A stretch of DNA of 64,000 nt from Magnetococcales bacterium DC0425bin3 (lineage in GTDB: Bacteria; Pseudomonadota; Magnetococcia; Magnetococcales; DC0425bin3). The notes below the pieces were generated by a model. That model made no database searches, had not been told where the DNA came from, and saw only the letters and a list, made by a program, of their open reading frames with translations. The DNA lies in contig PEAP01000003.1 in NCBI GenBank assembly GCA_002753665.1, forward strand, positions 15,054 through 79,053, in the 5' to 3' direction. This document shows positions 14,333-30,371 of this stretch, piece after piece; the first letter of the stretch is position 1, and every line of letters begins with the position of its first letter. A program made the position numbers and the translations under genes.

Positions 14333-17300
14333 ATGGATCCCAAGCGCCAAGCCGTCCTGCAACAGCGGTTGAAAAGCAGCCTCACCGCCTGGATGAACCC
14401 CACCTTCGACACCTGGGAGGCGCGGCAATGGCTGGTGGATTATCGGCGATACCTGCGGGAGACCTATGCCCGGGCCGACTTCGCCGGGGTGCTGGATGCC
14501 AAACAGCGGGTGCCCATGGCCCTGGCGGATATCTTCGTCGCGGAGCGCTTCGCCGCCGAGGATCTGACCAGCCGGGAGGGGGATGCCGACCTGTCCCGGC
14601 GTCTGGCCGCCACGCCCGGGGAGGAGATCGAGGATCTGCTGGTATCCCTGGGAGCCGATGAAACCACTCCCGCGGTGAATGGCCGGGTGGTGCTGGTGGG
14701 GCCGCCGGGGTCGGGCAAGTCGGCCCTGGTGCGCATGCTGGCCGCGGACTGTGCCGACGACGCCATGCGGCCCCTCAACCGTCATCTGGGGCGGCGACTG
14801 GTGATCCCCTTCATCCTGCGGGAGGCCTCCCTGGCCGGGGTGCGCACCACGGACCAGTTGCTGGAGCGTTGGCGGCAGAGGGTTGCGGTCCAGAGTCAAG
14901 GGAAGCACCAGGTGGACCTGGCGCAGGCCAAGCTGTATCTGGACAAAGGCTGGGCCATCGTCGCCTTCGACGGGGTGGACGAAATCGGCTATCAGGCGCG
15001 CATCCGGGTCCGTCATCTGGCCTGTGCCCTGGCAGCGCGTTTTCCCGGGGTGGCGGTGCTGGTGACCGGCCGGCCGGTGGGATTCCAGAAGCTGCCCTAC
15101 GACCAACTGTCCCCCCGGATATGGCGGGCCTTGAGTCAACGAGAAGGACGGGCGCTGACGCCCTTCGTCTGGCCCCTCCGTTATCTGCGACCTTTCGACG
15201 ACGGCCAGATCGAAAGCTACATCACACGCTGGTTCGCCGCCGGCTATCCCGAGGATCACGACCGCCAACAACGGGATGGGACCCAGCTCCTGGAGGCCCT
15301 GAAGAACAACACCGGTCTGCAGGGTCTCAAGCGTCGGCCCATCTATCTGGCCATCCTCACCTTTGTCCACGACAAGAAGGGCAAACTGCCCAACAGCCAG
15401 ACGTTGGCCTACGAGGCCATGGTGGAGGCCTATCTGGACGTGCTGGATGCCGCCAAGGATCTGGATCATGCCGTCAGCCCGCCCTTTCCCCGGGTTGTCA
15501 AGTGGCAGGTCCTGGAGCGGCTGGCCTATGGTTTGCATAGCCGTGATCCGGCCTTGTCCGCCCAGGGGGCGGGCAAGGACAATCCCTTCAACCTGCGCAT
15601 CGGCTGCGAGCCGTTCCAGCAGTGGCTGCAGGCTTCCGGTGGCTTCACCCAGGAGCAGGCGAAGGATATGCTGACCTTTCTCATCGCCCGGGCCGGGCTG
15701 CTGGTGGAGTCGGAAGAGGGGGTGCTGGCCTTCAGTCACCTGTCGTTCCAGGAGTTCCTGGTGGCGGCCCATGTGTTCCGGGAACTGGGCGAGTATATCT
15801 TCGACGATCCCAGCGGCTTTCTTCGGAATCGCCTGCTGGATCCCCTCACCCGCGACAGCGCCTGGCACCCCGCCGGGCTGGCCTTCTTCGGCCTGGTGAC
15901 CCACAAACAGGGTCACCAGCATTTCCAGGAACGAATCCTGCGCAAATGCTGGCTGGAGTCCCCAGCGCCCACAGTCAACGAAAATGTCAACCGCTTCCGG
16001 TTTCTCGACCGTCTGCTGTCCGAAGGGGAATCCGCTCTGTCCGATGCCTTCAAGCAAGAACTCTGGGGGCATTATTGGGATCGGGCCATCGCCCAATGGC
16101 ATGAGGACTGGATCATCCCCTTCGCCACTCCCGCCAACCATTGGGCGTGCTGGGGACCCCGGGTGGCCTCCACCATGGCGGAACGCTGGCAGCAACTCGC
16201 TCCCTCCTCCCAGGACGCCTTCAAGGAACTGACCCTGTTCTCTCTCCTGCCGCCGGACTGGATGGGGGAACAATGGAAAAGCCTGGAGGCCAAAGCAATC
16301 CGGGACCGGTGGATCGCTGCGGCCAAGCAGGACGCGACCTTGTTGAAGGCCCTGGATCTGCATGCCATCCATTCTCCGACATGGCCGCTATTGCGGTCCG
16401 CGTTTGGTTTCGAGAAGCTGCTGCTGACCAGCCTGACTTATTGGTCCTCCAATGGATTGCTATTCCCCTTCGTTCTTCTGCGGCATGACCAGGCCTTTCG
16501 TCAGGTGAGGAATCATTATCTTTCTCTGTTGGCTCTTGAGCTATTGACAGAGATCAGCCTCAATGGTGTTGAGAAGGCTCTGGCTCGGGATCTGGATCTG
16601 GCTCGGACTCTGGATCGGGCTCTGGCTCTGGCTCGGGATCGGGCTCTGGCTCGGACTCTGGATCGGGCTCTGGCTCTGGCTCGGGATCGGGCTCTGGCTC
16701 TGGATCGGGCTCTGGCTCGGGATCTGGATCTGGCTCGGACTCTGGATCGGGCTCTGGCTCGGGATCGGGATCGGAATCTGGCTCTGGCTCGGGCTCTGGC
16801 TCGGGATCTGGATCTGGCTCTGGATCTGGCTCTGGATCTGGCTCTGGATCGGGATCGGGATCGGGATCTGGATCTGGATCTGGATCGGGCTCGGGATCTG
16901 GCTCGGGATCGGGATCGGGATCTGAGTTTTGAAAAAACTAGAATTTTATATTATCATATTACCAATTGGATTTTGATCAACTCTTGCGTCGCCAACACCC
17001 CTCCCTGGTTTCCGACTCCAGCACAGGCCTGCGCGGCCGTGGAACGGCTGAGGGAGGAACAACCCGAATTGGCCGCCCTCTTTGATCGGGACTGGTTCCC
17101 CTACCGGTCATTGAAGAAGAAAGCCAGCCAGCCCTTCCCCCCCGAACCCCTGGAGGCCACCCACCACCGTTTCTACCGTTTTCTGCGCCATTGGTTACAG
17201 AAAGAAGGACAGGATGTCTCCGACCTGCCCGAACACCTCTCCCTCCAGCCGGGCAAGGCGTTCGCCAAGTACCATGGCGCCGAGGCGGCCCAACGCTGCC

Positions 17301-17401
17301 TGAAGGATCTGCAAGCCGCTGGCTGGGACCCCACGGTGTGGCCGCCGGCGGATGTCGATGCCTGGATTCGCAAGCCATCCCGAAAAAAAAGATCCCGCTG
17401 A
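14333..17401 (+). CDS. NACHT-domain (STAND) NTPase with C-terminal helical region, a 116-aa dipeptide-repeat tract and an uncharacterised ~158-aa tail
   Basis: Walker [19 protein letters not shown], Walker [13 protein letters not shown], then VLVTGRP and [12 protein letters not shown], typical of bacterial NACHT. Starts 8 nt after the KAP gene stop. No recognisable N-terminal effector domain. Confidence 0.85.
16577..16924 (+). repeat. 58 uninterrupted hexanucleotide units G[C/A]TC[T/G]G (3 ACTCTG and 1 AATCTG variants) encoding [A/D/T/N][L/R] dipeptides inside the NACHT gene
   Basis: Direct reading: gct ctg gct cgg gat ctg gat ctg gct cgg act ctg gat cgg ... gat cgg gat cgg gat ctg. There is a higher-order 48-bp unit ([16 protein letters not shown] x2). 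No stop codon in any of the six frames. Confidence 0.95.
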
Positions 17402-17486: not shown

Positions 17487-18194
17487 ATGTCGCCCGCCTA
17501 CGACCCCCTGGCCCCGGCCCGGGAAAGCTACCTCTTCGCCCATCTGTCGGAGCCGGCCTGGCAGCGGCTCCGGCCGGCCTTCCAGCGCCGACGCCTGGAA
17601 TCCGGCGCCCTGCTCTTCCAGCAGGGCGACCCCTTCGAGCATTTCTTCTTCGTGCTGTCCGGGGGGGTCAAGCTGTTCCGGATGTCGGCGGAAGGGCAGG
17701 AAAAGGTGCTGGAGGTGGTGGAGCCCGGCGCCACCTTCGCCGAGGCCATCATGTTCTCGGGCGGCCACCGCTATCCGGTGAACGCCGAGGCGGTGACGGA
17801 GTCGGTGCTGCTGGCCATGCCCCAGAAACCCTACATGGAGTTGCTGAAGAAACAGCCGGAACTCTGCTTCGACCTGCTGGCGGGCATGAGCCGGCGGCTG
17901 CATGGCCTGGTGATGGAAATCAACCGGTTGACCCTGCTGCGGGCGCGGGAACGCCTCATCGGCTACCTGGTGCGGCAGGCGGTGCCCGCCGAAAGCGGCG
18001 GGGCGGTGGTCAAGCTGCCCATGACCCGCAAGGTGCTGGCCTCGCGCCTGTCCATCCAGCCGGAAACCCTCTCCCGGCTGCTGGGCGCCCTCAAGCGGGC
18101 CGGTCAGATCCGGGAGGCCGAATCGGCCCTGCTCATCCCCGACCCCGCCGCCCTGCGGGCGCTGATGGCGGAAGAAAACCCGGACCCGGAATGA
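17487..18194 (+). CDS. Crp/Fnr-family transcriptional regulator
   Basis: cNMP-binding-like beta-roll (LFQQGDPFEHFFFVLSGGVKLFRMSAEGQEKVLEVV) and a C-terminal HTH (TRKVLASRLSIQPETLSRLLGALK). ATG 17487 is preceded by GAAGGAG. Confidence 0.85.
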   Translation: MSPAYDPLAPARESYLFAHLSEPAWQRLRPAFQRRRLESGALLFQQGDPFEHFFFVLSGGVKLFRMSAEGQEKVLEVVEPGATFAEAIMFSGGHRYPVNAEAVTESVLLAMPQKPYMELLKKQPELCFDLLAGMSRRLHGLVMEINRLTLLRARERLIGYLVRQAVPAESGGAVVKLPMTRKVLASRLSIQPETLSRLLGALKRAGQIREAESALLIPDPAALRALMAEENPDPE

Positions 18195-18215
18195 CCGCCG
18201 CCGGGTCCGGCGCGC

Positions 18216-20393
18216 TCAAAACGGCAGGATGTCCTTGAGAGGAATCCCCAGCTTCTCCTCCAGCTTCTTGACCTTCTCGCCGGTCTTGCCGGTCTGGAGC
18301 TTCTCCAGCAGTTTTTCCTTGGCCTGGGTCTTGGCGGCGGATTCCAACAACTCGGCCAGGTCCACCTGAACCTCCGGCTTGCCGAAGCCCCCGGTCACCC
18401 GCACCGGAATTTCCAGCCCCTTGAGATCCCGGGCGGTATGGTCGATCTCCTCCAGGGCCGGCAGCACCTTGGCCTTGAGCAGGTAATCCAACGTCTCGCC
18501 GGGCAGGTCCACCTGGCCGCCGCCCTCGACCTCCAGCAGGCCGGAGGCGGCCACCAGGTCGCGGTTGTCCACCACCCCCTGGCGAATGGTCGCCGACCCG
18601 GACAGGGTCTTGAAGACAGTCTTGCCCTGGTCCTCCCGCAGGGTGAGCGGACGCTGCTTGAGCAGGGCATAGGCTTCCAGGATGCGCCGCTCCAGGTCCA
18701 CGCCGAACACCGCGCCATCGGCCACGTCGAAACGGGCGCTGCCGTCGAGGTTGGAACGCAGCGTCGCCGCATCCAGACCCCGGCTGGTCAGATCCATCCC
18801 CAGGGTGGCGGTGCCGGAGACCAGATCCATGTCCAGCATCTCCTTCAGCAGCGGCTGGATCTTCACCCCCCGGAAGTCCGGTTTCAAGGCCAGGGCGGGG
18901 GCGGCACCCCGCAGGTCCAGCTGGGCGGTGGCCTCCAGGGTGCCTTCATAGAGACTCGCCTGGAACGGATCCAGGCGCAGCAGGCCGTCCCGGGCCCGCA
19001 CCCGGGCCTGCAGGTTGGTGAACTGCCCGCCATGGGCGGTGAGCCGACCCAGGCGCAGACGACCTTCCAGATCCAAACCGGCCAGGGCTGCCAACGGCCG
19101 CGCGGCCGCCGGCGCCGGCCTGGCCGCTCCGGGAGCGGGGGACGGCTCCCCCGGGGCCGGACCCGCCGCCCCGGTCTGGGGCGGGAGCAGGTAGCGGTCC
19201 AGGTCCAGGTGATCCAGGTTCAGGTCGAAGCGGATGGTCGGCTTGGCGAAGCGGGTCACCACGGCGGTGCCGGTCAGGTGGGCGCCGTCCAGGTCCATGG
19301 CCAGCTTTTGCACCTCGGCCCGGTCCAGTCCGATCCCCAGGGTGGTTTCCAGGGCCACGGCGCCGAAGGCCTGGAGATCGGCCGGCACCGGCTGGCCCAG
19401 CCGTTCCAGCAGCCGGCGCGGATCGAAGCGGGCCAACGCGAGCTGGGCGTCGAAGCGGGGATCGCCGAGGATTTCCCGGCCGTCGATGCGACCGGTCAGT
19501 TGCAGATGGTCCACCACGCCCAGGGTCAGACCGGTCACCGTCAGGGTCTGATCGTCCAGGCTGGTGGCGATCTCGGCCGCGAGGGTCGCCTCCACCCCCT
19601 GGTCGGGCAGCCCCTCCCCCGCGGCCCGCAGGGCCAGGCGGGTGCCGGCCAGGCGGAAGTTCCGGGATTTCTGGTCGCCGTGGAGGGTGCCGGCCAGCTG
19701 CAAGGTCCCGGTGGTTTTGGGTTGGGCGTTGCGCCACTCCAGGCTCGAATCGATGGCCACCGGCTGGCCATGGGCCACCGGCCCGGTGGCCAGGTTGAAC
19801 CGTTCCACCGCCACCTGATCGCCGGTGGCCTGGTCGGCAAAGCGCACCGCGCCGTCGGTGATCTCCACCCCGCCGACGGTGACGGCGGCCAGGGCCAGAC
19901 CCGCCCCCTCCTCTCCGGAGCCCGGCTCCGGGGCGGTGGCGGGGGGAGTCGCAGCCGCGGGGGCCGGCGCGGCAGCGCCGGTCAGGCCGACCCAGTTGCC
20001 CCGCCCGGCGCGGTCCCGCTCCAGGTCCAGTTGCAGGCCCTCCACCACCACCCGGTTCACCTCCACCCGCCGGTCCAGCAGGGGCAGCAGCTTCACCCGG
20101 ATGTCCAGCCGTTTGACCTGGGCCATGGGGCGGTCGGAAAACAGCGGCGCGTTGGAGAGGGTCACCCGCTCCAGCTTCACCCCCACCCAGGGGAACAGGG
20201 ACAGGCCCACCTCCCCGCCGATGGTCAGGTCCCGGCCCGTGCGGTCCTTGACGGCTTGGATCAGGGCGGGCTTGTAGTCGTTGGGATCCACCACCAGGGG
20301 GACGATCACCACCGCGCCCAACCCCAGGATCACCATGGCCAACAGGAGAAACAGCACCGTCTTGAGAATCGTTCCCATGAGTTCCGGTTCCAT
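18216..20393 (-). CDS. asmA: AsmA-family outer-membrane assembly protein
   Basis: N-terminal TM anchor, then an AsmA N-domain (DPNDYKPALIQAVKDRTGRDLTIGGEVGLSLFPWVGVKLERVTLSN) and an AsmA C-domain (GSATIRQGVVDNRDL). Alternative start is M6 (20378). Confidence 0.8.
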   Translation of the reverse strand: MEPELMGTILKTVLFLLLAMVILGLGAVVIVPLVVDPNDYKPALIQAVKDRTGRDLTIGGEVGLSLFPWVGVKLERVTLSNAPLFSDRPMAQVKRLDIRVKLLPLLDRRVEVNRVVVEGLQLDLERDRAGRGNWVGLTGAAAPAPAAATPPATAPEPGSGEEGAGLALAAVTVGGVEITDGAVRFADQATGDQVAVERFNLATGPVAHGQPVAIDSSLEWRNAQPKTTGTLQLAGTLHGDQKSRNFRLAGTRLALRAAGEGLPDQGVEATLAAEIATSLDDQTLTVTGLTLGVVDHLQLTGRIDGREILGDPRFDAQLALARFDPRRLLERLGQPVPADLQAFGAVALETTLGIGLDRAEVQKLAMDLDGAHLTGTAVVTRFAKPTIRFDLNLDHLDLDRYLLPPQTGAAGPAPGEPSPAPGAARPAPAAARPLAALAGLDLEGRLRLGRLTAHGGQFTNLQARVRARDGLLRLDPFQASLYEGTLEATAQLDLRGAAPALALKPDFRGVKIQPLLKEMLDMDLVSGTATLGMDLTSRGLDAATLRSNLDGSARFDVADGAVFGVDLERRILEAYALLKQRPLTLREDQGKTVFKTLSGSATIRQGVVDNRDLVAASGLLEVEGGGQVDLPGETLDYLLKAKVLPALEEIDHTARDLKGLEIPVRVTGGFGKPEVQVDLAELLESAAKTQAKEKLLEKLQTGKTGEKVKKLEEKLGIPLKDILPF

Positions 20394-20482
20394 CCGCAGA
20401 AGAGAGCTGGCATCATGACAGCCTCAAATGATTATGCCCTATTTCCCCCTTTTGCCAAGCACGGGACTGAACCCTTGCCGCC

Positions 20483-20995
20483 TTGAACCTCACCACCACC
20501 CCTCTGCTGATGCTGATCGGCATCCTGTTCCTCGCCGCCCTGCTGGCCGACCGGCGCCATGCCCTCCGCGTCCGCGCGGACGGCCGGGGCATGGCCCGGG
20601 AACGACCCTTCAAGTGCCTCAAGGGCAACTGTCACAACGGCTACGGCGAGGCCCGCTTCGTCAACGGCAACCTCTACCGGGGGCAGTACCGGAAGGGCCG
20701 CAAGCACGGCCGGGGCACCTTCATCTGGCGGGATGGCCGGATGTACGACGGCCAGTGGCGGGACGGGCGCATGAACGGCCCGGGAGTGATGACCTTTCCC
20801 CTGGGCGGCCGCTTCGAGGGCAATTTCGTCGAGGATCGCAAGGAGGGACGGGGCCGCTACACCTGGCCCAACGGCGGGGTCTACGAGGGGGAGTTCAAGA
20901 ACGACAAGCGTCACGGCCCGGGCGCCTACACCGATCCCGAAGGCCGCACCCTGCGCTGCCTCTGGTGCGAGGATCGGCCGGTGACCCCCTCCTGA
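20483..20995 (+). CDS. MORN-repeat protein with N-terminal membrane anchor or signal
   Basis: Repeated Y-x-G-x-[WF]-x-x-[GD]-x-x-x-G-x-G units (YRGQYRKGRKHGRGTF, YDGQWRDGRMNGPGV, YEGEFKNDKRHGPGAY). TTG start at 20483; alternative ATG at 20510. Confidence 0.8.
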   Translation: MNLTTTPLLMLIGILFLAALLADRRHALRVRADGRGMARERPFKCLKGNCHNGYGEARFVNGNLYRGQYRKGRKHGRGTFIWRDGRMYDGQWRDGRMNGPGVMTFPLGGRFEGNFVEDRKEGRGRYTWPNGGVYEGEFKNDKRHGPGAYTDPEGRTLRCLWCEDRPVTPS

Positions 20996-21003
20996 TCCCC
21001 TGT

Positions 21004-22815
21004 TCAACGCGGCGGTTCGGCGGCGAAGTTGATGACGATCCCATCGGGCAGGCCTGACGGGACCCCTCCGGCATCCGCGGCCGCCGGCTCCCCCTCCCCG
21101 GTCAGCTCGCCACGCAGTTTGCGGTACAGCCGATGCTGCGGATGAATGACCAGGGCCTTGTCCACCTCCGCCAGAGCCTTGACGGTCTCGCCCAGGGCCT
21201 GGAAAGCCACCGCCAGGTGGTAATGGGCGTTGCCATGCTCGGGATGTCGCGCCACCAACCCCTGCAGGAGTTCCACGGCTTCCCGGTAACGTCCCTGGCC
21301 GTTGCGCAGCGCCCCCAGATTGGACTGGGCGTTGGGATCCCCGGGGGCGATGCGCAGCGCCATGGCCACCGGCTCCTCCGCCTCGGCGAAGCGCCCCAGA
21401 TTGAGCAGCATGGCGGCGGTGTTGAGGTGGCTGGAGAACAGGCGGGGATAGCGTTCCCGCAGCGCCTGGAAGTGGACCAGGGCCTTCTCGAACTGTCCCA
21501 CCGCATGCCAGGCGCTGCCGGCCTGGAGCCGCACGATCCGGCTCTGGGGCTGGAGGCGGGCGTTCTCTTCCCAGAGCAGGGGGGGCGAGGCCATCAGGGT
21601 ATTGCGCAGCAGGGTGAAAACCCCCAACGTCCCCAGCAGGGCCAGCCACAGGGGACGGCGCAGGGTCCGGGCCAGGGCGCTGCCCCGCGCCAGCAGCCGG
21701 TCCCCCGCCAGCACCACGAAGATCAGCGGGCCGCTGCTGGAGAGATAGGCCCGGTATTCCAGGGGATAGTTGTGGACCATGGGCAACACGCTGTGCAGGG
21801 GCGCCATGACCAGCAGAAACCAGCCCAGGGCGAACGCCCACAGCCGCCGCCGGGCCGCCCCGACCAGGGTGAGGCCCACCAGGATCAGAAAAGCCGCGAC
21901 CCAAGGCCAAGCCTGCGCTGGTCCCTGGGGGGTCCAGCTGTAATCCATGACCAGATCGGTGGGCCAGAAGGTGATCTGCAGGTAATGGAACAGCACCCGG
22001 GGCTGGTTGAGGGCGTAGAGCAGGGGATCGTCCTGGGGCTGGACCGTCCCCGCCCAGCGTTTGAGATCCAGCCGCAGCAGGATGGTGACGGTCATGGCCA
22101 CCAGGGCCAGGGCCATGCCGCCATGGAGGATCCGGCCCTGCCACAGGATCCGCCGCCAGGAGTCCGGGAAGAAGAACCAATGGGTGAAAAAAAGCACGAA
22201 GGGGGCCGCCACCATGGTCTCATTGGCCCCCAGCCCCAGCAGAAAGGCCCCCAGCGCCAGGACCGTCCAGCGCCGCTCCCGCCCCCGGTCCGAAGTGGTC
22301 CAGCCGCGCAGGGCGCAGTAATGGGTCAGGAGCAGGAAGAGGGCCATGAGGATGGCGCTGCGTCCGCTCAGATAGGTGACGCCATGGACCAGCAGGGGGT
22401 GCAGCCCCCAGGCCAGGGTGGCCAGGGCGGCCGGCCAGGCGGTGCCGTCCGGAAACAGCGCCCGCAGCCGGGGCAGCTCCAGCAACCGCCGCAGCAGGCC
22501 GAACAGGGTCAGCACCGCCAGCAGGTGAATGATCAGGTTGACCAGATGATGGGGCCAGATCCGTTCGAGACCACCCATGGCCCAACTGAGGGCATAGGTG
22601 AAATTGCTCAGGGGGCGCATCATCAAACCGGTGGACGCCGGTGGATCGAGGGACTGCGTCAGGGGCAGGATGCTGTGGATGGAGGGGTTGTTGCCGATGT
22701 TGAGGATGTCGTCGAACAGCAGGGGTACCTGCAGGCTGTTGGCGTAGGCCAGACTGACCACGGCCAGAATCAGCAGGGCTGGACTGGTCGAGGAGGGCCA
22801 AACGGCATCCTTCAA
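21004..22815 (-). CDS. polytopic membrane protein (GT-C / PMT-TMTC-like glycosyltransferase fold) with C-terminal TPR repeats
   Basis: N-terminal LAYANSLQVPLLFDDILNI (first-loop DD motif), about 10 hydrophobic helices and a C-terminal TPR block (AWHAVGQFEKALVHFQ...HYHLAVAFQALGE). Proposed start is TTG 22815, 6 nt after GGAGG. The track extension to 23058 reads as off-frame junk. Confidence 0.6.
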   Translation of the reverse strand: MKDAVWPSSTSPALLILAVVSLAYANSLQVPLLFDDILNIGNNPSIHSILPLTQSLDPPASTGLMMRPLSNFTYALSWAMGGLERIWPHHLVNLIIHLLAVLTLFGLLRRLLELPRLRALFPDGTAWPAALATLAWGLHPLLVHGVTYLSGRSAILMALFLLLTHYCALRGWTTSDRGRERRWTVLALGAFLLGLGANETMVAAPFVLFFTHWFFFPDSWRRILWQGRILHGGMALALVAMTVTILLRLDLKRWAGTVQPQDDPLLYALNQPRVLFHYLQITFWPTDLVMDYSWTPQGPAQAWPWVAAFLILVGLTLVGAARRRLWAFALGWFLLVMAPLHSVLPMVHNYPLEYRAYLSSSGPLIFVVLAGDRLLARGSALARTLRRPLWLALLGTLGVFTLLRNTLMASPPLLWEENARLQPQSRIVRLQAGSAWHAVGQFEKALVHFQALRERYPRLFSSHLNTAAMLLNLGRFAEAEEPVAMALRIAPGDPNAQSNLGALRNGQGRYREAVELLQGLVARHPEHGNAHYHLAVAFQALGETVKALAEVDKALVIHPQHRLYRKLRGELTGEGEPAAADAGGVPSGLPDGIVINFAAEPPR

Positions 22816-23009
22816 AGCGCGCCTCCCGGACGGGGCAGGAGGTGTATGTTCGAATCGAATTGGATATGTTCGACCGCCAGAGCAGCAGGCAGCGTCATTC
22901 CACAATAGCTGCAGTAGGGACCCAACCGTTCGACGAGATGAGGCCGAGCGGTGGCGTAATTGTGGAATACGACTCCGATCGGCGCTGGACCACGGTCGAT
23001 GGGCCTCAT
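22812..23009 (-). pseudogene. 65-codon ORF resembling the N-terminal half of a PtuB/TIGR02646-type HNH nuclease (truncated remnant or mini-protein)
   Basis: MRPIDRGPAP...RLGPYCSYCGMTLPAALAVEHIQ has the CxxC...EH first half of the family but lacks the downstream W-N-L/CxxCN half. The start overlaps the ATPase stop (ATGA). The stop overlaps the TTG of the next gene (TTGA). Confidence 0.4.
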
Positions 23010-24301
23010 GGACGCCGTCCCTCCGCTGCCAGCCGTTCCATGCGCAAAAAGGCCACAAAGGCCGGATCGTCCGCGAAGGGCTCGGCCAGCTCGTCCAGGC
23101 GCTGCTTAAGTGCTGCCAGCTCCGTCTCCGGGGCGGCGGGAATCCGTTCCAGCAACCGGTAATACGCCTCGGCAGCGACCACCATTTCCTGGCGGCGTTG
23201 GCTCCGTTGGGGCAGGGGAACGCCCTGGATCCACTCGATGATATCCTCTGGGCTGGCGTTGGCGTGGGAAAGTGTGGCCTTGTAATCGGGATCCAGATTG
23301 TACAGGCTCCCCTCCCAGAGGCTCTGGATAATGAAAGGAGAATGGGTGGTGGCCACGAACTGCAGGTTGGGAAAGGCGGTCCGCAGGTCCCCGACCACTC
23401 GCCGTTGCCACTTGGGATGAAGGTGGAGGTCGATCTCGTCGATGAGTACCAGACCGGTGGTCCGCTGTGGCGCCTCCTGGCCGAAAAATGGGTTCAGAAC
23501 CGTGGCCCGCCAGGCGATGTCGGCCACCATGGCCAGCATGTTCCGATAGCCATCGGAAAGCATGTCAAAGGTGAAGAGAGGGCCATCGTCCATCTCCAGA
23601 ACCAGTTCCTCCCGGGCCAAGTCGTAACGAAAGCTGCGTGCCCCTTCCAGAAAGGTGAGAACCACCCGTTCGATGGTGTGGGCATGAAGGCTGGTCTGTC
23701 CCCGCTGGGCGTCGATCAGAGCCTGCCGACGCAGCCAGGCGGTCAGATGTTTGTGGTTGGAGGCAGGATCCAGACAATCCCGGTAGCCGGCCAACCGACC
23801 GGGAATCTTGGGACCCATGTCGGCCAATTCCCGTTTTTGCCGCCACAGACGTTGGGTTCCATAATAGGCCAGCACCGGTAATGGGCGCTGTTCCCCCCCG
23901 GCCACCGCCTTCCGCAGTTCTTCCGCCAGGGCCACCAGTTCCACGGCCTCCCGTCGCGTGGTTCGCCCCCTGGGACCATACAGGCCTCGGCGCCAGGAAA
24001 CCGCATGGTCGGCTACCTGTCCCCGGGCCGCGACGACGGCCGGGTATTGGGGTTGCAGGTCGGCGAGGCCGTCGAACACATGAACCACCCGTCGGACTTC
24101 CTCCTGGCCGATGCTCCGGCCTTGAATCCCCGGAAAACCCAACAGGAACCCTCCCATGGCCACTGCCAGGGCCTCCAGCAGGCTGGTCTTGCCGCTGGCG
24201 TTGTTGCCCACCAGCAGGGTAAACCTGGGGTCCAGGGAAAGTTCCTTGGCAGCGAAGCCATGGAAATTCTGGGTTTGAAGTTCCGTGATTTTCATGGTCA
24301 T
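23006..24301 (-). CDS. ABC/SMC-type AAA15/21-family ATPase, PtuA-like (Septu / retron-associated type)
   Basis: MKITELQTQNFHGF, Walker A LLVGNNASGKTSLLEAL, signature-like MLSDGYRNMLAMV, Walker B GLVLIDEIDLHLHPKWQ and H-loop FVATTHSPFIIQS. Visibly lower GC than its neighbours. Confidence 0.75.
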   Translation of the reverse strand: MTMKITELQTQNFHGFAAKELSLDPRFTLLVGNNASGKTSLLEALAVAMGGFLLGFPGIQGRSIGQEEVRRVVHVFDGLADLQPQYPAVVAARGQVADHAVSWRRGLYGPRGRTTRREAVELVALAEELRKAVAGGEQRPLPVLAYYGTQRLWRQKRELADMGPKIPGRLAGYRDCLDPASNHKHLTAWLRRQALIDAQRGQTSLHAHTIERVVLTFLEGARSFRYDLAREELVLEMDDGPLFTFDMLSDGYRNMLAMVADIAWRATVLNPFFGQEAPQRTTGLVLIDEIDLHLHPKWQRRVVGDLRTAFPNLQFVATTHSPFIIQSLWEGSLYNLDPDYKATLSHANASPEDIIEWIQGVPLPQRSQRRQEMVVAAEAYYRLLERIPAAPETELAALKQRLDELAEPFADDPAFVAFLRMERLAAEGRRP

Positions 24302-24326
24302 GCCATGCGTAACGACAAGTCGTCGG

Positions 24327-25862
24327 TCATCCCGGCCCCTGTCCGGAGGTCCGCGCCCCTGTCTTGCCCTTCTTGTCCCCGCCCTTGATCTCCTCCAGAT
24401 TGACCCGGAACCGGCTGGCCTCCGCCGGGGGATCGATGAAAATGGCTTGGAATTTCATCTCCTTGCCAGGAATCACCTTGGGGACCTTGAGCTTTTCGGT
24501 GTCGGCCTGGGAGGCGACCATGCGCAGCAGGTTCTGGTCATGGGTGGGAAAATCCTTCTCCTGCAACACCCGACCCGGAATCACCCGGGCCGTGGCCACC
24601 GGCTGCTGCTGGTCGTCCAACAGTTCGACCACCACCATCTGGGCACTGCGGGCCGTCCGGGCTTCATTGCCGATGCCGCCCATCACCATCAGCATGGGAT
24701 TGCCTTCGGGGCTGGACTGCCACTGTCCCTCCACCCCGATCAGCGCCAGTTCGCTCCCACCCCGCATCTTCTTCTGCAGCCAATCGCTCTGACCGAAGGA
24801 GCCCACCAGCCAGGTCAGTCCCAGAATGGCGGCCGCGGTCCAGAGGATCTTGCGCACCTTGGGGCTGTCGAAGGGCAGGGCGGTTTTCTTCTCTTCTTCC
24901 TCCTCCTCCGGCTCCTCGTCATCGACGGATCCGGTCAGGTCGATATCCTCATCGGCCGCGAAATCCTTCGTGAAGTCGGAATCGGTGGCCGGCTCCACCG
25001 GATCGTCGTCATGATCGAGCTTCTGCCGGCCCCGCTGGGAAGGCGGCGCCAACTGGGTGGGGGCATCTTCGTCCACCCTGCTGGGCAGGGGCTCGTCATC
25101 CAACCCCTCGACGGGCTCCTGCAACATCGGACCGGTGGTGTCCTCGTCCAGGTTGATCTCTTCGATGCGGGTGAGATCCTCGTCTTCCTCCAGGGTCAGA
25201 TCGTCATCCAGCCCATCCGGCTTCTCCAACTCGTCGCCATCCGCGGCGTCTTCCGGACCCAGGCCGCTCAGATCCACCTCTTCCAGCTCGTCCCCGACCA
25301 GTCCGGCCGCCCCGGACGCTTCCTCGCCCTCCTCCAGGTCCGGCAGCCCTCCTTCCAGCCCCTCGTCCTCCTCCACTTCCTCGCCGGCCAGTTGGCTGAG
25401 GGCCGACGCGGGATCTCCCGCGTCCTCCTCCCCCAGAGCGTCGGAATCGATCCGGCCCATCAGGGATTCCAGGGATTCCTCGTCCGACTCCGCTGCCCCG
25501 GCGGCAGGCTCTTCCTCCGCTGCCCCGGCGGCAGGCTCTTCTCCCCCTTCGTCGGCAGCGGATTCCCCTGCCGGATCCGGTTCCTCCAGATCTTCCAACC
25601 CCTCTCCGATCCCCTCCCCATCGGGTTCTGCATCCCCCTCCGGCTCGGCTTCCGCCTGATCCTTGTCTTCCTCCAGGTCCGCCGCCGGCGGCTCCTCATC
25701 CGGCAGACCCCTGGAACCGGCAGGTTCGGGATCTCCCTTCCTGGGAGGGTCCTGGAAAAAGACGTGCTTGCAGCGGGAGCATTTGAGCTTGCGCCCGGCG
25801 GGCTGCAGGATCATGTCCTCCACATCGAAACGGCTGCCGCAACTGTTGCACTGGACGATCAC
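24327..25862 (-). CDS. MJ0042-type zinc-ribbon protein with acidic low-complexity linker, one TM helix and a DUF3426 C-terminal domain
   Basis: Proposed GTG start gives (M)IVQCNSCGSRFDVEDMILQPAGRKLKCSRCKHVF. This is followed by about 280 aa of D/E/P/A-rich sequence, a TM segment (ILWTAAAILGLTWLVGSF) and a DUF3426-like beta domain. The track ORF extends to 26117 without homology. Confidence 0.7.
   Translation of the reverse strand: MIVQCNSCGSRFDVEDMILQPAGRKLKCSRCKHVFFQDPPRKGDPEPAGSRGLPDEEPPAADLEEDKDQAEAEPEGDAEPDGEGIGEGLEDLEEPDPAGESAADEGGEEPAAGAAEEEPAAGAAESDEESLESLMGRIDSDALGEEDAGDPASALSQLAGEEVEEDEGLEGGLPDLEEGEEASGAAGLVGDELEEVDLSGLGPEDAADGDELEKPDGLDDDLTLEEDEDLTRIEEINLDEDTTGPMLQEPVEGLDDEPLPSRVDEDAPTQLAPPSQRGRQKLDHDDDPVEPATDSDFTKDFAADEDIDLTGSVDDEEPEEEEEEKKTALPFDSPKVRKILWTAAAILGLTWLVGSFGQSDWLQKKMRGGSELALIGVEGQWQSSPEGNPMLMVMGGIGNEARTARSAQMVVVELLDDQQQPVATARVIPGRVLQEKDFPTHDQNLLRMVASQADTEKLKVPKVIPGKEMKFQAIFIDPPAEASRFRVNLEEIKGGDKKGKTGARTSGQGPG
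25490..25543. repeat. 27-bp tandem duplication (x2, one mismatch) inside the acidic linker
   Basis: ccgctgccccggcggcaggctcttcct / ccgctgccccggcggcaggctcttctc encodes a repeated EEPAAGAAE. Confidence 0.85.
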
Positions 25863-26085
25863 TGGGCTGTTCCTTCCGCGAAACCGGAGCCTTCCCTGAC
25901 CCTTGAGAATTGTTGCCACAATACCATAATCAAAATTCGTGCCGTAAGCATCAACCGGAACGAAATGTCCGCCGCCGGACATCCGGCAGCCCCATTTCTG
26001 CGCCATAAGCCTTGATCTTCCGCGCCCGTTTCCTGAAACTGCAAGTCCCCCAACCTCTTTCCAGCCCGACCGAAAGGAATTCACC

Positions 26086-26481
26086 ATGACCACACCGGCC
26101 ATGACCACACCGGACAATCTGAAATATACCAGGGAACACGAATGGTGCCGCCCCGAGGGAGCGGAGGTGGTGGTGGGGGTGACCCAGTACGCCGCCAGTC
26201 AGCTCGGCGACGTGGTGTTCGTGGAACTGCCGGCGGTCGGCGCCCCGGTCACCGCCGGCCAACCCTTCGGCGTGGTGGAGTCGGTGAAATCGGTCTCCGA
26301 CCTGTTCGCCCCGGTCAGCGGCACCGTCAGCGCCATCAATTCGACCCTCCCCGATGCCCCGGAACAGGTCAACCAGGACCCTTATGGCGAAGGATGGATG
26401 ATCCGCATCCGCCCCGTCCCAGGGGACCAGATGACCGGCCTGCTGTCGGCGGCGGACTATGCGGCCTTGATCGCCGGATGA
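26086..26481 (+). CDS. gcvH: glycine cleavage system protein H
   Basis: LKYTREHEW...GVTQYAASQLGDVVFVELP...VESVKSVSDLFAPVSG, including the lipoyl-lysine motif ESVK. Confidence 0.93.
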   Translation: MTTPAMTTPDNLKYTREHEWCRPEGAEVVVGVTQYAASQLGDVVFVELPAVGAPVTAGQPFGVVESVKSVSDLFAPVSGTVSAINSTLPDAPEQVNQDPYGEGWMIRIRPVPGDQMTGLLSAADYAALIAG

Positions 26482-26495
26482 CCGGCATTTGACAT

Positions 26496-26526
26496 GACGG
26501 CTTTCCCACATGCTGGGAAAGCCGTC
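26496..26526. terminator. perfect 13-bp stem / 5-nt loop hairpin between convergent gcvH and the rlmD-like gene
   Basis: GACGGCTTTCCCA-catgc-TGGGAAAGCCGTC. There is no clear U-tract on either side, so terminator function is inferred from position only. Confidence 0.4.
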
Positions 26527-26552
26527 GAATGTCGATGGATGGGAAAAACCGC

Positions 26553-27836
26553 TCAGCCCAGAAACAGGGCCGTCAGCTCCACATGGTGGGTCTGGGGCAG
26601 CATCTCCACCGGCACCACCGCCGCCAGCCGCAGCCCACCCCGCACCAGCCGGGCCGCGTCCCGGGCAAACGTGGCCGGGTCGCAGGAGACATACACCACC
26701 CGCCGGGGCGGCGCCGCGGCCAGCCGTTCGGCCAGGGCCACCGCCCCCTGGCGGGGCGGATCCAGCACCACCACATCCTCCCTGCCCCAGGGCAGCCGCC
26801 GCGGATCCGGGCCGACCAGCAGATCGGCCTGCTGGAAGGTCACCCCGGTCAGACCTGCCTCCCGGGCATTCTGCCGCCCACGGGCCACCGCCGGACCATA
26901 CCCTTCCAGCCCCAGCACCTGCCGAAACCGCCCCGCCAGAGGCAGCGTGAAATTGCCTACTCCGCAAAACAGATCCACAACCCGCTCACCCCGCCCGGCC
27001 TGCTCCAACACCAACTCGGCCAAGGGACGGTTCTGCTCGAAATTGGCCTGGGTGAACATCTCGGGGCGGTAACCCAACACCACGTCCCCCACCCGATAGC
27101 AGGGATCGGGCCCCTCCACCAGCGGCCGCAACGTCCCCTTGCGCCCCATCTGGGCCCAGATCTGCAGAACCCCATGGTCACGGGCAAATCCGGCCATGGC
27201 CGCCCGGTCCGACCCGCCGGGCTCCCGCAACAGATGAAAGACCAGGGCCGGACCGTTGTCGCCGCACACCCCGTCCACCTGGGGCACACGGGCCGCCACC
27301 GACAGGGTGGCGATCAGCTCCCGCAACGGCCCCAGCAGCTCGGCCAGCCGGGGATGCAGCACCGGACACCCGGGCAGGTCCACCACCCGATGGCTGGCGG
27401 CGGCGAAGAAGCCCAGCAACACGCGCTCCCCCACCCGGCGCACCTTGAATCCGGCCCGCCGCCGATAGCCCAGGGGCGCGGGGGCCGGCAGAATGGGCGC
27501 CAGCACCCCCTCCTCCAGGGCCAGCCGGCCCACCCGGGTCACGGCCTCGGCCACCATCTCTTCCCGAACCCGGCCTTGCCCGGCCGGGGCGAGATGCAGC
27601 AACCGGCAGCCGCCGCACTGGCCATGCAGGGGACAGGGTGGCTCCACCCGCCAGGGGCCCGGGGCCAGAATCTCCCGGATTTCCCCCTTGAGATACCCCC
27701 GGCCCCCGGGACTCAACGCCACCCGCAACCGATCCCCGGGGGCGGCAAACGGCACAAACACCGCCTGCCCCTGATGATGGGCCAAACCATGGCCTCCCGC
27801 GACCACCCGTTCGATATCGAGTGCAATGGTCTCCAT
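26553..27836 (-). CDS. rlmD: 23S rRNA (uracil-5-)-methyltransferase RlmD/RumA-like (TRAM + [4Fe-4S] + class I SAM MTase)
   Basis: N-terminal TRAM-like domain, Cys cluster PPCPLHGQCGGCRLLH, SAM motif VVDLFCGVGNFTLPLA and C-terminal VYVSCDPATFARD. Confidence 0.8.
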   Translation of the reverse strand: METIALDIERVVAGGHGLAHHQGQAVFVPFAAPGDRLRVALSPGGRGYLKGEIREILAPGPWRVEPPCPLHGQCGGCRLLHLAPAGQGRVREEMVAEAVTRVGRLALEEGVLAPILPAPAPLGYRRRAGFKVRRVGERVLLGFFAAASHRVVDLPGCPVLHPRLAELLGPLRELIATLSVAARVPQVDGVCGDNGPALVFHLLREPGGSDRAAMAGFARDHGVLQIWAQMGRKGTLRPLVEGPDPCYRVGDVVLGYRPEMFTQANFEQNRPLAELVLEQAGRGERVVDLFCGVGNFTLPLAGRFRQVLGLEGYGPAVARGRQNAREAGLTGVTFQQADLLVGPDPRRLPWGREDVVVLDPPRQGAVALAERLAAAPPRRVVYVSCDPATFARDAARLVRGGLRLAAVVPVEMLPQTHHVELTALFLG

Positions 27837-27886
27837 ATTTGCCTAGAATATCGCTCCGTTCCAGATCATCCTCGTGAGAACTGCCC

Positions 27887-28903
27887 GTGAGCCGTGCCCG
27901 CACGCGAGCCGACCGCCTGCCCACCCTGAACCGCCGGTTCACCCAGGGCAGCCTGCTGCTGCTGGGGGCCACCCTGGCCGGTTTCGCCGCCGGGCAATGG
28001 TGGTTCTGGGAGCTGTTTGCACATTTTCGGGTGCAATACACCCTGGCCGCCCTGGTGGGCGTGGCCCTGGCCCTGGGCTTGAAGCGGCCCCTGTGGGGCG
28101 TGCTGCTGGGCTTCTGCGCCGGCCTCAATGGCGCCCAACTGCTGCCCCTGCTCCCCAATGGCGCGGACCTCCCTCCGCCCCCGGGTCCGACCCTGAGACT
28201 GTTGAGCTACAACCTCAACGCCTTCAAGTCCATGGAGCCAGAGATGCTCGCCTGGCTGGAGCGGGAATCCTTCGACATCCTCGTGCTGCTGGAGGTGACT
28301 TCCGAGGACTGGCAGGCCCTGGCCCCCCTGCGCGCCCACTACCCCCACTGGACCGTCAAACCCAGCCCCACCCCCAACGGCGTGGCCCTGTTGAGCCGGG
28401 TGCCCGGCACCCGAACGGCGGTGTTCGAGATTCCCGGTGTCTCCTCTCCGGGGGTGAGCGCCTACCTCTCCCTGGCGGGTCGGCCCCTGACCATCCTGGG
28501 TCTCCATCCGCCCCCATCCCATTCCCCGCAGCGCTCGGAGGTCCAGGACCAGGTCTTTCAGGAGGTGATCCGGCTGGCGGCCAGCCGCCCGGCGCCCCTG
28601 GTGGTGGCCGGGGACCTCAACAGCACCCGCTGGTCACCGCGTTTCCAGAACCTGCTGACCGCCACCGGCCTGCGGGACAGCAGCGACGGGCGCGGCTGGC
28701 ATCCCACCTGGCCCTCCTGGCTGGTGGGATTGCCCCTGTTGATTCCCATCGACCATTTCCTCCACACCCCGGAGATCACCGTCCATCAGCGCCGGGTGGG
28801 AGCCGACCGCGGCTCGGACCATTATCCCCTGGAAGTGATCTTCGGCTGGAACGCGCCCCGGCGGGCGGTCAACGAAACAGCTTCAGCACGCCCTGCACCT
28901 TGA
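27887..28903 (+). CDS. endonuclease/exonuclease/phosphatase (EEP) family protein with N-terminal TM helices
   Basis: LRLLSYNLNAF...DILVLLEVT...VVAGDLNST...GSDHYPLEV are EEP catalytic motifs. GTG start. Confidence 0.75.
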   Translation: MSRARTRADRLPTLNRRFTQGSLLLLGATLAGFAAGQWWFWELFAHFRVQYTLAALVGVALALGLKRPLWGVLLGFCAGLNGAQLLPLLPNGADLPPPPGPTLRLLSYNLNAFKSMEPEMLAWLERESFDILVLLEVTSEDWQALAPLRAHYPHWTVKPSPTPNGVALLSRVPGTRTAVFEIPGVSSPGVSAYLSLAGRPLTILGLHPPPSHSPQRSEVQDQVFQEVIRLAASRPAPLVVAGDLNSTRWSPRFQNLLTATGLRDSSDGRGWHPTWPSWLVGLPLLIPIDHFLHTPEITVHQRRVGADRGSDHYPLEVIFGWNAPRRAVNETASARPAP

Positions 28904-30371
28904 TCTTGAATTCGTAGAACGAACGAATATTGAAAATGCTGCGCACGATGTATCCGGGGCGGAAGTAGAACCGCCGGTAGCTGCGGCGCTGGATCTCCAT
29001 CTGCCGGGCGGCGGGGATGAACTCCTCCCAATGATCCACGGTGAAACCGGGTTTGGGATCCAGCACCCATTCCTTCCAGCGGCGTGGATCGACCAGGCCC
29101 TGCTCGACCGCCCGATCATAGAGGGGGGTATTGGGATAGAGGTTGAGGACCGCCACCTGGCAATAGTCGGGATCGATCTTCAGGGCGAATTCCAGGTTGC
29201 GCTCGATGTCCGCCTCGGTCTTTTCCGTGGGCAGACCGATCATGAAATCCGCCACCCGCAGGATGCCCAGCTCCCGGCACCAGCGGAACACCTGTTCGAC
29301 CTGGGCGATGTTGGTGCCCTTTTGCAGATCCTCCAACCCGGCATCGTTGCCGGTCTCCACCCCGAAGGAAATGAGCCGGCAGCCGGCCCGCTTGGCCCGC
29401 TCCAGGGATTCCCGGGTGACGGTGTTGGTGCGGCCGCGGAAGCTCCAGGGGAATCTCAGCCCCCGGCGTTCCACCTCATCGCAGAACTCGACCACCTTGC
29501 GGGGCGAGACGTTGAACAGGTCGTCATAGAAATGGATCTCCCGGTAGCCCATGGCCAGGCACCGGGCCACCTCGTCGGCCACGCTGGCGGCGGAGCGGCG
29601 CCGGTAGCGCTTGTAGGGCACATCGCAGAAGGTGCAGCGATAGGGACAGCCCCGGGTGCTGATGATGGTGGCCAGCCGGTGGCTCACCCCCAGAATGGAG
29701 TGGTAGTCGATGTGCCGGATGTACTCCCGGTTGGGAAAGGGCAGGGCGTCGAGGTCGTCCACATAGGCCGGCGGCACGGTGACGCTGCCGAGAAAACGTT
29801 GGTCCCGATAGTTGGCCTCCCGCCAGGCGGCCATGGACTCCCGGGTATAGACCCCGGTGATGCGGGTGATGTCATTGCCCTGTTCCAGGGCCTCGACCAG
29901 TGCGGTGAAGGCCACCTCCCCTTCCCCCACCACGATGGAGTCGAACTCCGGCAACTGAGCGGCCTCGTAGGGGAAGGCGATGGGGTGGTGCCCGCCCATG
30001 CAGATATGGGCGGTGGGCACGATCTCCCGCACGGTGCGGGCGGCCTTGATCACATCGATGAGAGAAATGGTGAAGCTGGTGATCCCCACCACGTCGGGCT
30101 GGATGTCCCGGATCAGGGCCGGCAGGTCCGCATGGCGGATCCGCTCCCCCACGCAATCCTTGAAGAACAGCCGATGGCCCCGGGTGTGGGCTTCCAGATG
30201 GCTGAGAACATAGAGCGCCCCCAGGGGCGGAAAGGCCCCGAAATCATCCGACTCCAGGTATTCCTCCCCCTCCGCGTTGGGGTATTCGATGACGGTATGT
30301 TCGGCAGGGGGGTTGAGGATCAGAATGTTCATCGGCGCAAAACCCGCTTCTTCCATGAAGGATAATGCCAT
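28869..30371 (-). CDS. B12-binding-domain radical SAM protein
   Basis: N-terminal cobalamin-binding-like domain (DVVGITSFT...) and the radical SAM cluster motif TRGCPYRCTFCDV. Possible alternative start at M14 (30332, MNILILNPP). The 3' end overlaps the convergent EEP gene by 35 nt. Confidence 0.85.
   Translation of the reverse strand: MALSFMEEAGFAPMNILILNPPAEHTVIEYPNAEGEEYLESDDFGAFPPLGALYVLSHLEAHTRGHRLFFKDCVGERIRHADLPALIRDIQPDVVGITSFTISLIDVIKAARTVREIVPTAHICMGGHHPIAFPYEAAQLPEFDSIVVGEGEVAFTALVEALEQGNDITRITGVYTRESMAAWREANYRDQRFLGSVTVPPAYVDDLDALPFPNREYIRHIDYHSILGVSHRLATIISTRGCPYRCTFCDVPYKRYRRRSAASVADEVARCLAMGYREIHFYDDLFNVSPRKVVEFCDEVERRGLRFPWSFRGRTNTVTRESLERAKRAGCRLISFGVETGNDAGLEDLQKGTNIAQVEQVFRWCRELGILRVADFMIGLPTEKTEADIERNLEFALKIDPDYCQVAVLNLYPNTPLYDRAVEQGLVDPRRWKEWVLDPKPGFTVDHWEEFIPAARQMEIQRRSYRRFYFRPGYIVRSIFNIRSFYEFKIKVQGVLKLFR

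Follow-up and report, generated by a model that had tools for sequence, protein, structure and literature searches.

A probable decayed type I Septu cassette with an internally deleted ptuB in a Magnetococcales MAG

Stand-alone type I Septu systems consist of PtuA and the HNH nuclease PtuB (8EE4, 8EE7), and PtuB combines an HNH domain with a PtuA-binding C-terminal domain (CTD) (PMC12819146, PMC12673091). The H-N-H and zinc residues are needed for defence (PMC12673091, PMC13096335). Moreover, the zinc finger of PtuB requires all four cysteines, defence is abolished by the PtuB H57A substitution, by H/N mutants and by a 4-Cys mutant, and neither PtuA alone nor PtuB alone is toxic (PMC12673091, PMC12819146, PMC13096335). 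The effectors of type I-A retrons (PtuAB of Ec78/Eco7 and Ec83/Eco4) share a homologous ATPase core and the HNH partner family. However, retron PtuAs are ~550 aa long with an N-terminal extension and a coiled-coil, whereas the PtuA described here (429–431 aa) has neither.

We analysed a window of 64 kb from a short-read MAG contig (GCA_015233965.1, JADFWZ010000002.1), in which a ptuA gene and a 65-codon ORF lie directly upstream of a gene for a membrane protein with TPR repeats (Table 1). The locus has the gene order and ATGA overlap of stand-alone type I Septu, a full-length ptuA with all ATPase motifs, and a ptuB remnant with the PtuB N-terminus and C-terminal motif. Compared with a working stand-alone system it is a defective member, without the H-N-H Asn, the second Cys pair, the remainder of the HNH domain and the docking CTD. 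It is very probably a horizontally acquired type I Septu cassette whose nuclease gene was internally deleted in frame, leaving the system inactive.

Table 1. Features of the ptuA–ptuB locus and its neighbours (window coordinates)
Feature	Position	Strand	Description
Upstream co-directional gene, zinc-ribbon/DUF3426 protein	24327..25862	-	Stop 25 nt before the ptuA ORF
ptuA	23006..24301	-	Maximal ORF of 431 aa; intact stand-alone Septu ABC-type ATPase
ptuB remnant	22812..23009	-	65-codon ORF; matches PtuB codons 1–50 plus the last 15 PtuB codons and native stop, in frame
ptuB N-terminal part	22860..23009	-	Residues 1–50, MRPID...AVEHIQ
Deletion junction	22859..22860	-	CAA/TTC, Q50/F51; from mapping onto the L005 and L009 PtuBs
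ptuB C-terminal part	22812..22859	-	Residues 51–65, FDSNIHLLPRPGGAL, plus TGA; fits family terminal motif CFDx6PRPGGxL
Shine-Dalgarno and TTG start	22813..22827	-	GGGAGG 22827..22822, 6-nt spacer, TTG 22815..22813; sequence read directly
Polytopic membrane protein gene	21004..22815	-	603 aa, C-terminal TPR repeats; MBF0623348.1

The ATPase gene and its setting

The likely ptuA start codon is the ATG at 24295, which yields a protein of 429 aa; alignments to the family models open at residue 3, and the NCBI annotation (MBF0623347.1) agrees. PtuA matched the PADLOC PtuA model PDLC00278 over its full length (E = 1.7e-133; residues 3–428 on model positions 1–434 of 436), as well as the Pfam families AAA_15, AAA_21, AAA_23 and SMC_N. 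Its best solved relative is the stand-alone Septu PtuA 8EE4 (E = 2e-46), to which the Walker A, signature, Walker B and H-loop regions all align; the gene thus encodes a complete ABC/SMC-type PtuA with all four motifs, as the initial annotation had recognized. The remnant is adjacent and co-directional, and its start codon overlaps the stop codon of ptuA (ATGA, 23006..23009).

The same annotation had regarded the locus as not retron-linked, a view that our comparisons support. Retron PtuAs align to this PtuA only over residues ~160–340, and its score against the retron-type NCBIfam model NF041760 (178.6 bits) falls below the cut-off of 500. No RVT-family reverse transcriptase gene was detected among the called genes within 8.5–10 kb on either side (Pfam), and no msr/msd RNA was matched by Rfam, whose coverage of retron RNAs is limited, between 18000 and 30000 at E ≤ 0.1, save for one chance match.

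The lower GC content that had been noted over the ATPase and stub was also borne out, at 0.60–0.63 across both compared with 0.66–0.74 in the flanks. GC3 was 0.73 in ptuA and 0.61 in the stub, 0.87 in the TPR gene and 0.83–0.91 in neighbouring genes. By this measure ptuA and the stub are foreign and the TPR gene is host-like. The stop of the DUF3426 gene lies so close to ptuA that there is no room for an obvious promoter, and a sigma-70 consensus scan of the minus strand (20459..26400) found no promoter-like site; these co-directional genes are probably co-transcribed.

The ptuB remnant and the missing segment

The 65-codon ORF has no gene call in the NCBI annotation, and its exact sequence is absent from a collection of 15 billion proteins. 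It nevertheless matched the PADLOC PtuB model PDLC00315 at positions 1–53 of 227 (E = 1.7e-16) and an HMM built from 83 full-length PtuBs at positions 1–53 of 229 (E = 7e-27). It is also 55–57% identical to residues 1–54/55 of the 237-aa PtuBs partnering the two closest PtuA homologues, and BLAST extends the match to one of these (L009) as far as residue 65. The first CxxC (C33, C36) and the H-N-H catalytic His (H48) are kept in the N-terminal part, as are all invariant columns of the family alignment (A2) across the remnant. The initial annotation had likened the ORF to the N-terminal half of PtuB; the family and the terminus were right, albeit the part retained is the first ~22% of the protein rather than half.

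It had further held that the ORF ends before the C-terminal part of PtuB, and so overlooked the tail. Residues 51–65 are the genuine, extreme C-terminus of PtuB: the tail is identical at 10 of 15 positions to the C-termini of two full-length PtuBs (P0309 and P0261), the match score was reached by none of 716 controls taken from ORF ends in this window and by none of 5,000 shuffles, and the best-matching position was the exact C-terminus in all 27 PtuBs scoring at least 25.

Since the remnant unites the N-terminus of PtuB with its native C-terminus, the deletion lies wholly inside ptuB, as an in-frame internal loss that retains the gene's own start and stop. Relative to the closest 237-aa PtuBs, ~166–167 codons (~0.5 kb) are missing, equating to ~166 of ~232 PtuB codons, and tblastn found no trace of the missing part elsewhere in the window (best other match E = 0.11). 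Removed from the HNH domain are the H-N-H Asn, two of four zinc cysteines (the second pair) and the rest of the domain, such that a complete H-N-H (beta-beta-alpha-metal) fold and four-Cys zinc finger are reduced to the first CxxC and the catalytic His. The helical CTD, through which PtuB docks on the C-terminal region of PtuA, is gone except for the last 15 residues of PtuB. With half of the HNH site and the docking CTD lost, the remnant would be unable to cleave nucleic acid or assemble with PtuA, so the defence system would be inactive; mutagenesis of homologues likewise leads us to predict that the locus is negative for anti-phage defence. On this analysis, the cassette is almost certainly a dead remnant adjoining an unrelated membrane-protein gene.

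Behind each of the two PtuA homologues nearest to this one (56% and 52% identity; loci L005 and L009) lies a gene for a 237-aa PtuB that overlaps ptuA by the same 4 nt, and the modal length of the family is 225–250 aa among the 150 best family matches. An intact nuclease gene is present in these loci. No relative close enough to display the intact ancestral locus was found, the nearest AsmA orthologue being 40% identical and without synteny. Internally deleted or frame-shifted PtuBs were found in other lineages. Decay of ptuB is thus recurrent, one example being an 85-aa mini-PtuB (P0347) with joined N- and C-termini behind a PtuA homologue in another lineage. Deletion end points differ between cases, so the mini-PtuBs are not one family.

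The downstream membrane protein gene

The TTG start of the TPR gene, which NCBI also annotates, overlaps the ptuB stop (TTGA), and the Shine-Dalgarno sequence is formed by Pro-Gly-Gly codons of the ptuB tail. These elements, like the ATGA overlap, had been read correctly in the initial annotation (GGAGG 6 nt upstream of the TTG). Because both the TTGA overlap and the Shine-Dalgarno sequence sit in the retained tail, they were not created by the deletion. The only other in-frame upstream starts are TTGs at 22905 and 23058, neither of which has a Shine-Dalgarno sequence.

The encoded protein matched only TPR models in Pfam (including TPR_16, E = 7.8e-16, and TPR_19, E = 1.1e-15), consistent with a C-terminal TPR array. 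It has at least six strong hydrophobic segments, and its AlphaFold model is all-helical (mean pLDDT 90.9). An Asp-Asp pair follows TM1, with D35 conserved in all of 40 homologues and D36 in nearly all, giving a polytopic N-terminal domain and an acidic first-loop motif as expected of a GT-C enzyme. Based on these two features and the TPR array, the protein looks like a PMT_2/TMTC-type GT-C glycosyltransferase. Its homologues, none of which exceeds 33% identity (the match with the highest score has 32%), include proteins that carry Pfam PMT_2 or the name protein O-mannosyl-transferase. Of the earlier description as a GT-C-like/TPR protein, the TPR part is confirmed by Pfam, and the GT-C part is supported only indirectly, by a PMT_2 match in 8 of 40 homologues, not in the protein itself. 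None of the homologues adjoined Septu in the contexts examined, which were unrelated, and the protein had no PADLOC match. The gene appears to be a host gene outside Septu.

Origin of the locus and its meaning

We propose that a stand-alone ptuA–ptuB cassette was acquired horizontally and came to lie between two co-directional Magnetococcales host genes. An in-frame loss of ~0.5 kb (~166 codons) inside ptuB would then have left a 65-codon ORF with native start and stop. As the deletion is in frame, ribosomes on the remnant would still terminate at the TGA overlapping the TTG start of the TPR gene, and translational coupling of that gene, whose Shine-Dalgarno sequence belongs to the part of the ptuB tail that was kept, would be preserved as a by-product. 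The initial annotation had offered, as one option, a decayed Septu locus in which a deletion fused the nuclease to its neighbour; decay is upheld, and the fusion gives way to an internal, in-frame deletion.

No point-mutational decay was observed in ptuA or in either retained piece of ptuB, where all invariant family positions are kept. The deletion may accordingly be recent, and the intact ptuA could be either a recent orphan or a gene that has simply not yet decayed. Continued selection would also fit the absence of point decay, and an in-frame deletion that spares translational coupling might be taken as a product of selection and not of accident. However, only ~5 of the 12 decayed PtuBs seen were in frame, near the one-third expected by chance, which counters the latter reading.

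An otherwise undecayed ptuA and remnant are also what a very recent or unreal deletion would leave, and the window derives from a short-read assembly. It is nonetheless unlikely that the population carries an intact ptuB and that the 0.5-kb gap reflects MAG assembly or a sub-population. The junction flanks contain no repeat able to cause an assembly collapse; the 9-nt TCGAACATA pair near the junction occurs at chance frequency, such a repeat being found in 10% of window tiles. Moreover, the two sides of the join are exactly in frame with each other, and the frame stays open up to the native stop. NCBI records the same 431-aa PtuA from a second contig (91,670 bp) and lists the TPR and AsmA proteins, in identical form, from two contigs each; no intact PtuB belonging to this lineage was found.

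The other option raised initially was a functional variant, in which the mini-protein and/or the TPR protein replaces the nuclease. In such a variant the mini-PtuB would bind PtuA as a regulator or decoy, the TPR protein would have taken over as effector of PtuA, or both. The intact ptuA, the in-frame deletion with conserved residues of both retained pieces unharmed, the tight translational chain of three ORFs and the independent second mini-PtuB behind a PtuA homologue (P0347) could all be taken to favour this. However, the PtuA-binding CTD and half of the zinc/HNH site are gone, and the differing end points of mini-PtuBs do not describe a family. The TPR protein has no PADLOC match and its homologues no Septu neighbour in the contexts examined, its gene is host-like next to a foreign ptuA, and the PtuA/mini-PtuB/TPR arrangement was found in no second genome in the collections searched. 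We consider a functional variant very improbable. There is a comparably slim, slightly smaller chance that N- and C-joined mini-PtuBs, here and in P0347, still engage and modulate PtuA or a PtuB target, or that PtuA uses the coupled TPR protein as a new effector. Were the mini-PtuB or the TPR protein to act with PtuA, the locus would represent a new Septu variant, and nothing found favours this. Finally, the idea that ptuB lost its 3' part together with the intergenic DNA, fusing the truncated gene to its neighbour's start, accords with the overlap of stub stop and TPR start and the lack of intergenic space, but is refuted by the last 15 codons and stop being the native ptuB 3' end, barring a coincidental match (0/716 and 0/5,000 controls), and has next to no probability.

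The preferred reading, a cassette inactivated by internal deletion of its nuclease gene, makes this Magnetococcales MAG locus a decayed Septu of an ordinary kind, and its importance is mainly for annotation. Automated defence finders would overlook the locus or report an orphan PtuA, and a short stub is best aligned to the N- and C-terminal ends of its parent family before truncation or fusion is proposed. The locus offers an example in which a toxic defence nuclease has been lost, with its ATPase partner and expression of the downstream host gene spared, and the recurrence of deleted or frame-shifted ptuB genes in metagenomes fits frequent inactivation of Septu.

The ptuB remnant and its junction

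The 65-codon stub between ptuA and the TPR gene had been described in the initial annotation as resembling the N-terminal half of PtuB, and the N-terminal match held when it was checked against the PADLOC PtuB profile (PDLC00315, E 1.7e-16, model 1-53 of 227). The 237-aa PtuBs encoded beside the two closest PtuA homologues (loci L005 and L009) showed 55-57% identity to it across their first 54-65 residues, and, used as queries, found no further PtuB-like sequence elsewhere in the window (64 kb; best other E 0.11). Searched against 1.84 billion representative proteins, the stub gave 224 matches with a modal length of 225-250 aa, and nearly all of these alignments ended at stub residue 48-56.

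New relative to that description is the C-terminal identity of the stub tail, which in a multiple alignment fell on the extreme C-terminus of full-length PtuBs. An ending common among PtuBs is CFDx6PRPGGxL/I, and the stub ends in QFDSNIHLLPRPGGAL. Its last 15 residues were scored, end-anchored, against 83 full-length PtuB C-termini; the best matches were 10/15 identical (P0309, FDEQYRLIPRPGGAL; P0261, FDADGHPLPRPGGDL), and neither ORF ends from the same window (0/716) nor shuffled stub tails (0/5000) reached the observed scores. When the tail was slid along the proteins, the best position was the exact C-terminus in all 27 PtuBs scoring at least 25. This anchoring, beyond both controls, shows that the stub comprises PtuB residues 1-50 fused in frame to the final 15 residues and native stop. 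Compared with the PtuBs of L005 and L009, it lacks 166-167 residues (~0.5 kb), and the junction lies between 22860 (CAA, Q50) and 22859 (TTC, F51). A deletion running from ptuB into the neighbouring gene is ruled out, since the stub retains the native ptuB C-terminus and stop.

The window belongs to the 117,340-bp contig JADFWZ010000002.1 of GCA_015233965.1, a Magnetococcales genome assembled from a metagenome. That the deletion is real and not an assembly artefact is favoured by three points: no repeat able to explain assembly collapse was found at the junction, the 9-nt direct repeat bracketing it (TCGAACATA; 22873..22865 and 22853..22845, minus strand) occurs at background frequency, and the join is exactly in frame. 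Such repeats were present in 1.4% of mononucleotide shuffles and in 10% of tiles of matching size taken from the real window, so this one is probably due to chance. In protein records, an identical PtuA is found on a second NCBI contig, and identical TPR and AsmA proteins are each on two contigs.

In Retron-Eco7 PtuB, residues 1-152 form the HNH domain, with zinc ligands C43, C46, C78 and C90, and a three-helix C-terminal domain (CTD, 153-216) binds the PtuA C-terminal domains; defence is abolished by H57A and by a four-Cys mutant (PMC12673091). Ec78 and Septu are reported to share a conserved PtuB CTD and a conserved C-terminal extension of PtuA, and PtuA alone or PtuB alone is non-toxic, PtuB being dependent on PtuA (PMC12819146). 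Mutating the His or Asn of H-N-H abolishes immunity by a stand-alone E. coli Septu (PMC13096335). Unlike Retron-Eco7 PtuB, the stub has one Cys pair (C33 and C36, equivalent to C43/C46) and the His (H48, equivalent to H57), and is without the H-N-H Asn, the second Cys pair, the remaining HNH domain and essentially the entire CTD. Given these losses, it would be unable to form a zinc-stabilised HNH site or to dock on PtuA, and we infer that the Septu system in the window is likely inactive.

The Septu cassette and its neighbours

The three minus-strand ORFs reported previously were recovered by ORF calling, and the ATGA overlap joining ptuA and the stub, the TTGA overlap joining the stub and TPR ORFs, and the Shine-Dalgarno sequence (GGGAGG) six nt 5' of the TTG start were all seen in the sequence.

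Coordinates of the Septu cassette, the TPR gene and possible further defence-like genes in the window
Feature	Position	Strand	Remarks
ptuA ATPase ORF	23006..24301	-	431 aa; NCBI: 429 aa, start at 24295
Stub ORF (ptuB remnant)	22812..23009	-	65 aa; no NCBI gene call
TPR gene	Long ORF ending at 21004; TTG at 22815..22813	-	NCBI: 603 aa, same TTG start
KAP-family NTPase	12921..14324	+	PADLOC candidate-defence PDC-S20, QatA, PifA, E 8e-30
1022-aa P-loop (GPPGSGKS) protein	14333..17401	+	Long DLAR/DRAL-type repeat tract; GC3 0.74 (low)

The ATPase matched the PADLOC PtuA model over the full length (PDLC00278, E 1.7e-133; residues 3-428, model 1-434 of 436), as well as AAA_15, AAA_21, AAA_23 and SMC_N in Pfam. 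Its closest solved structure was stand-alone Septu PtuA (8EE4/8EE7, E 2e-46), with the Walker A, signature, Walker B and H-loop regions conserved and aligned. Retron-type PtuAs, in contrast, are longer, and their alignment to the window PtuA is confined to the C-terminal ATPase half, and a score of 178.6 bits with the retron PtuA model of NCBIfam falls below its cut-off of 500. No reverse transcriptase gene was found within ~10 kb of the cassette, and no Rfam family matched across 18000..30000, Rfam's coverage of retron RNAs being limited. The window PtuA is thus of the stand-alone Septu type, in agreement with the earlier reading of a Septu ATPase that is not retron-linked. Its two closest homologues among ~5.8 billion proteins (P0002, 56% identity; P0005, 52%) each have the gene for a 237-aa PtuB immediately downstream, with the same 4-nt overlap.

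The stop of an upstream zinc-ribbon/DUF3426 gene lies 25 nt ahead of the ptuA ORF (spacer 24302..24326, minus strand), and L005, the closest intact Septu locus, has identical spacing to its own upstream gene. Neither candidate ptuA ATG is preceded by a recognisable Shine-Dalgarno sequence, and a consensus scan found no sigma-70-like promoter on the minus strand around the cassette. The cassette is wedged between the zinc-ribbon/DUF3426 gene and the TPR gene; ptuA, the stub and the TPR gene are probably co-transcribed with the former, and translation of the TPR gene probably begins by termination-reinitiation at the stub stop. Separately, the zinc-ribbon/DUF3426 gene contains a perfect 27-nt tandem duplication (25488..25541) in its acidic low-complexity region, and a perfect 15-nt tandem repeat (26084..26113) in the gcvH / DUF3426 intergenic region overlaps the gcvH start.

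Because the native ptuB stop is kept, the TTGA overlap and GGGAGG, which encodes the Pro-Gly-Gly of the conserved PtuB tail, are features of the ptuB 3' end and did not arise through the deletion. The TPR protein has an N-terminus typical of its family (short tail, TM1, then LAYANSL..P..FDD), with an Asp-Asp pair invariant or nearly invariant across 40 homologues, at least six strongly hydrophobic segments and C-terminal TPR repeats; its AlphaFold model is all-helical and confident (pLDDT 90.9). Of its earlier description as a GT-C-like/TPR protein, the TPR part stood, as Pfam matched TPR models only, and the protein may be termed GT-C-like only by association with homologues (PMT_2 in 8/40, some named O-mannosyltransferase). 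At GC3 0.87 it resembles surrounding housekeeping genes (0.83-0.91), whereas values of 0.73 for ptuA and 0.61 for the stub mark these two as foreign, the lower GC previously noted there being evident in the GC profile too. The closest TPR-protein homologues are at most 33% identical and in unrelated neighbourhoods, with no Septu beside the nearest in the neighbourhoods examined, and no PADLOC model matched the protein. The TPR gene thus appears to be a host gene.

Decay or function of the locus

The locus is very probably a decayed Septu system, a defective representative of a known system. Decay had been one of two initial proposals, and only its postulated fusion to the neighbouring gene fell away, the deletion being internal and in frame. 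The other, a functional variant in which the mini-protein and/or the TPR protein replaces the nuclease, is unsupported: in the collections searched the ptuA/stub/TPR arrangement is unique, the nearest PtuA has an intact partner, and no recorded protein resembles the stub over its full length. Such a variant, or a very recent event, would accord with ptuA and both ptuB pieces being otherwise undamaged, with every invariant column kept; the searched collections held no close relatives of the organism, and this undamaged remainder fits "recent" and "selected" alike.

Five other shortened PtuBs retain both termini (P0347, 85 aa; P0400, 135; P0401, 148; P0324, 181; P0275, 149), and ~7 other short family representatives have frame-shifted or unrelated tails. 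P0347 (L020:1032-1289) lies directly behind a PtuA homologue 42% identical to that of the window. Decayed PtuB-family proteins in the representative library include P0304, P0351, P0301, P0280 and P0336. Since internal deletion end points vary among the five, and the in-frame share among decayed PtuBs (~5/12) is near the chance expectation of one-third, recurrent neutral or toxicity-driven ptuB decay fits better than a mini-PtuB family.

The KAP NTPase and P-loop pair may represent a second defence-like insertion ~6 kb from the Septu remnant. In a related Magnetococcales MAG (GCA_015234045.1), the AsmA orthologue has, two genes upstream, an AbiLi-type AAA_21 ATPase (L012:7738-9018, PADLOC E 4e-85). 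Although unrelated to PtuA, this is a further defence-type ATPase close to asmA in Magnetococcales.

The internally deleted and frame-shifted PtuBs suggest recurrent inactivation of ptuB in different lineages, and the value of the locus is limited to a methodological point and the hint that such inactivation is common.
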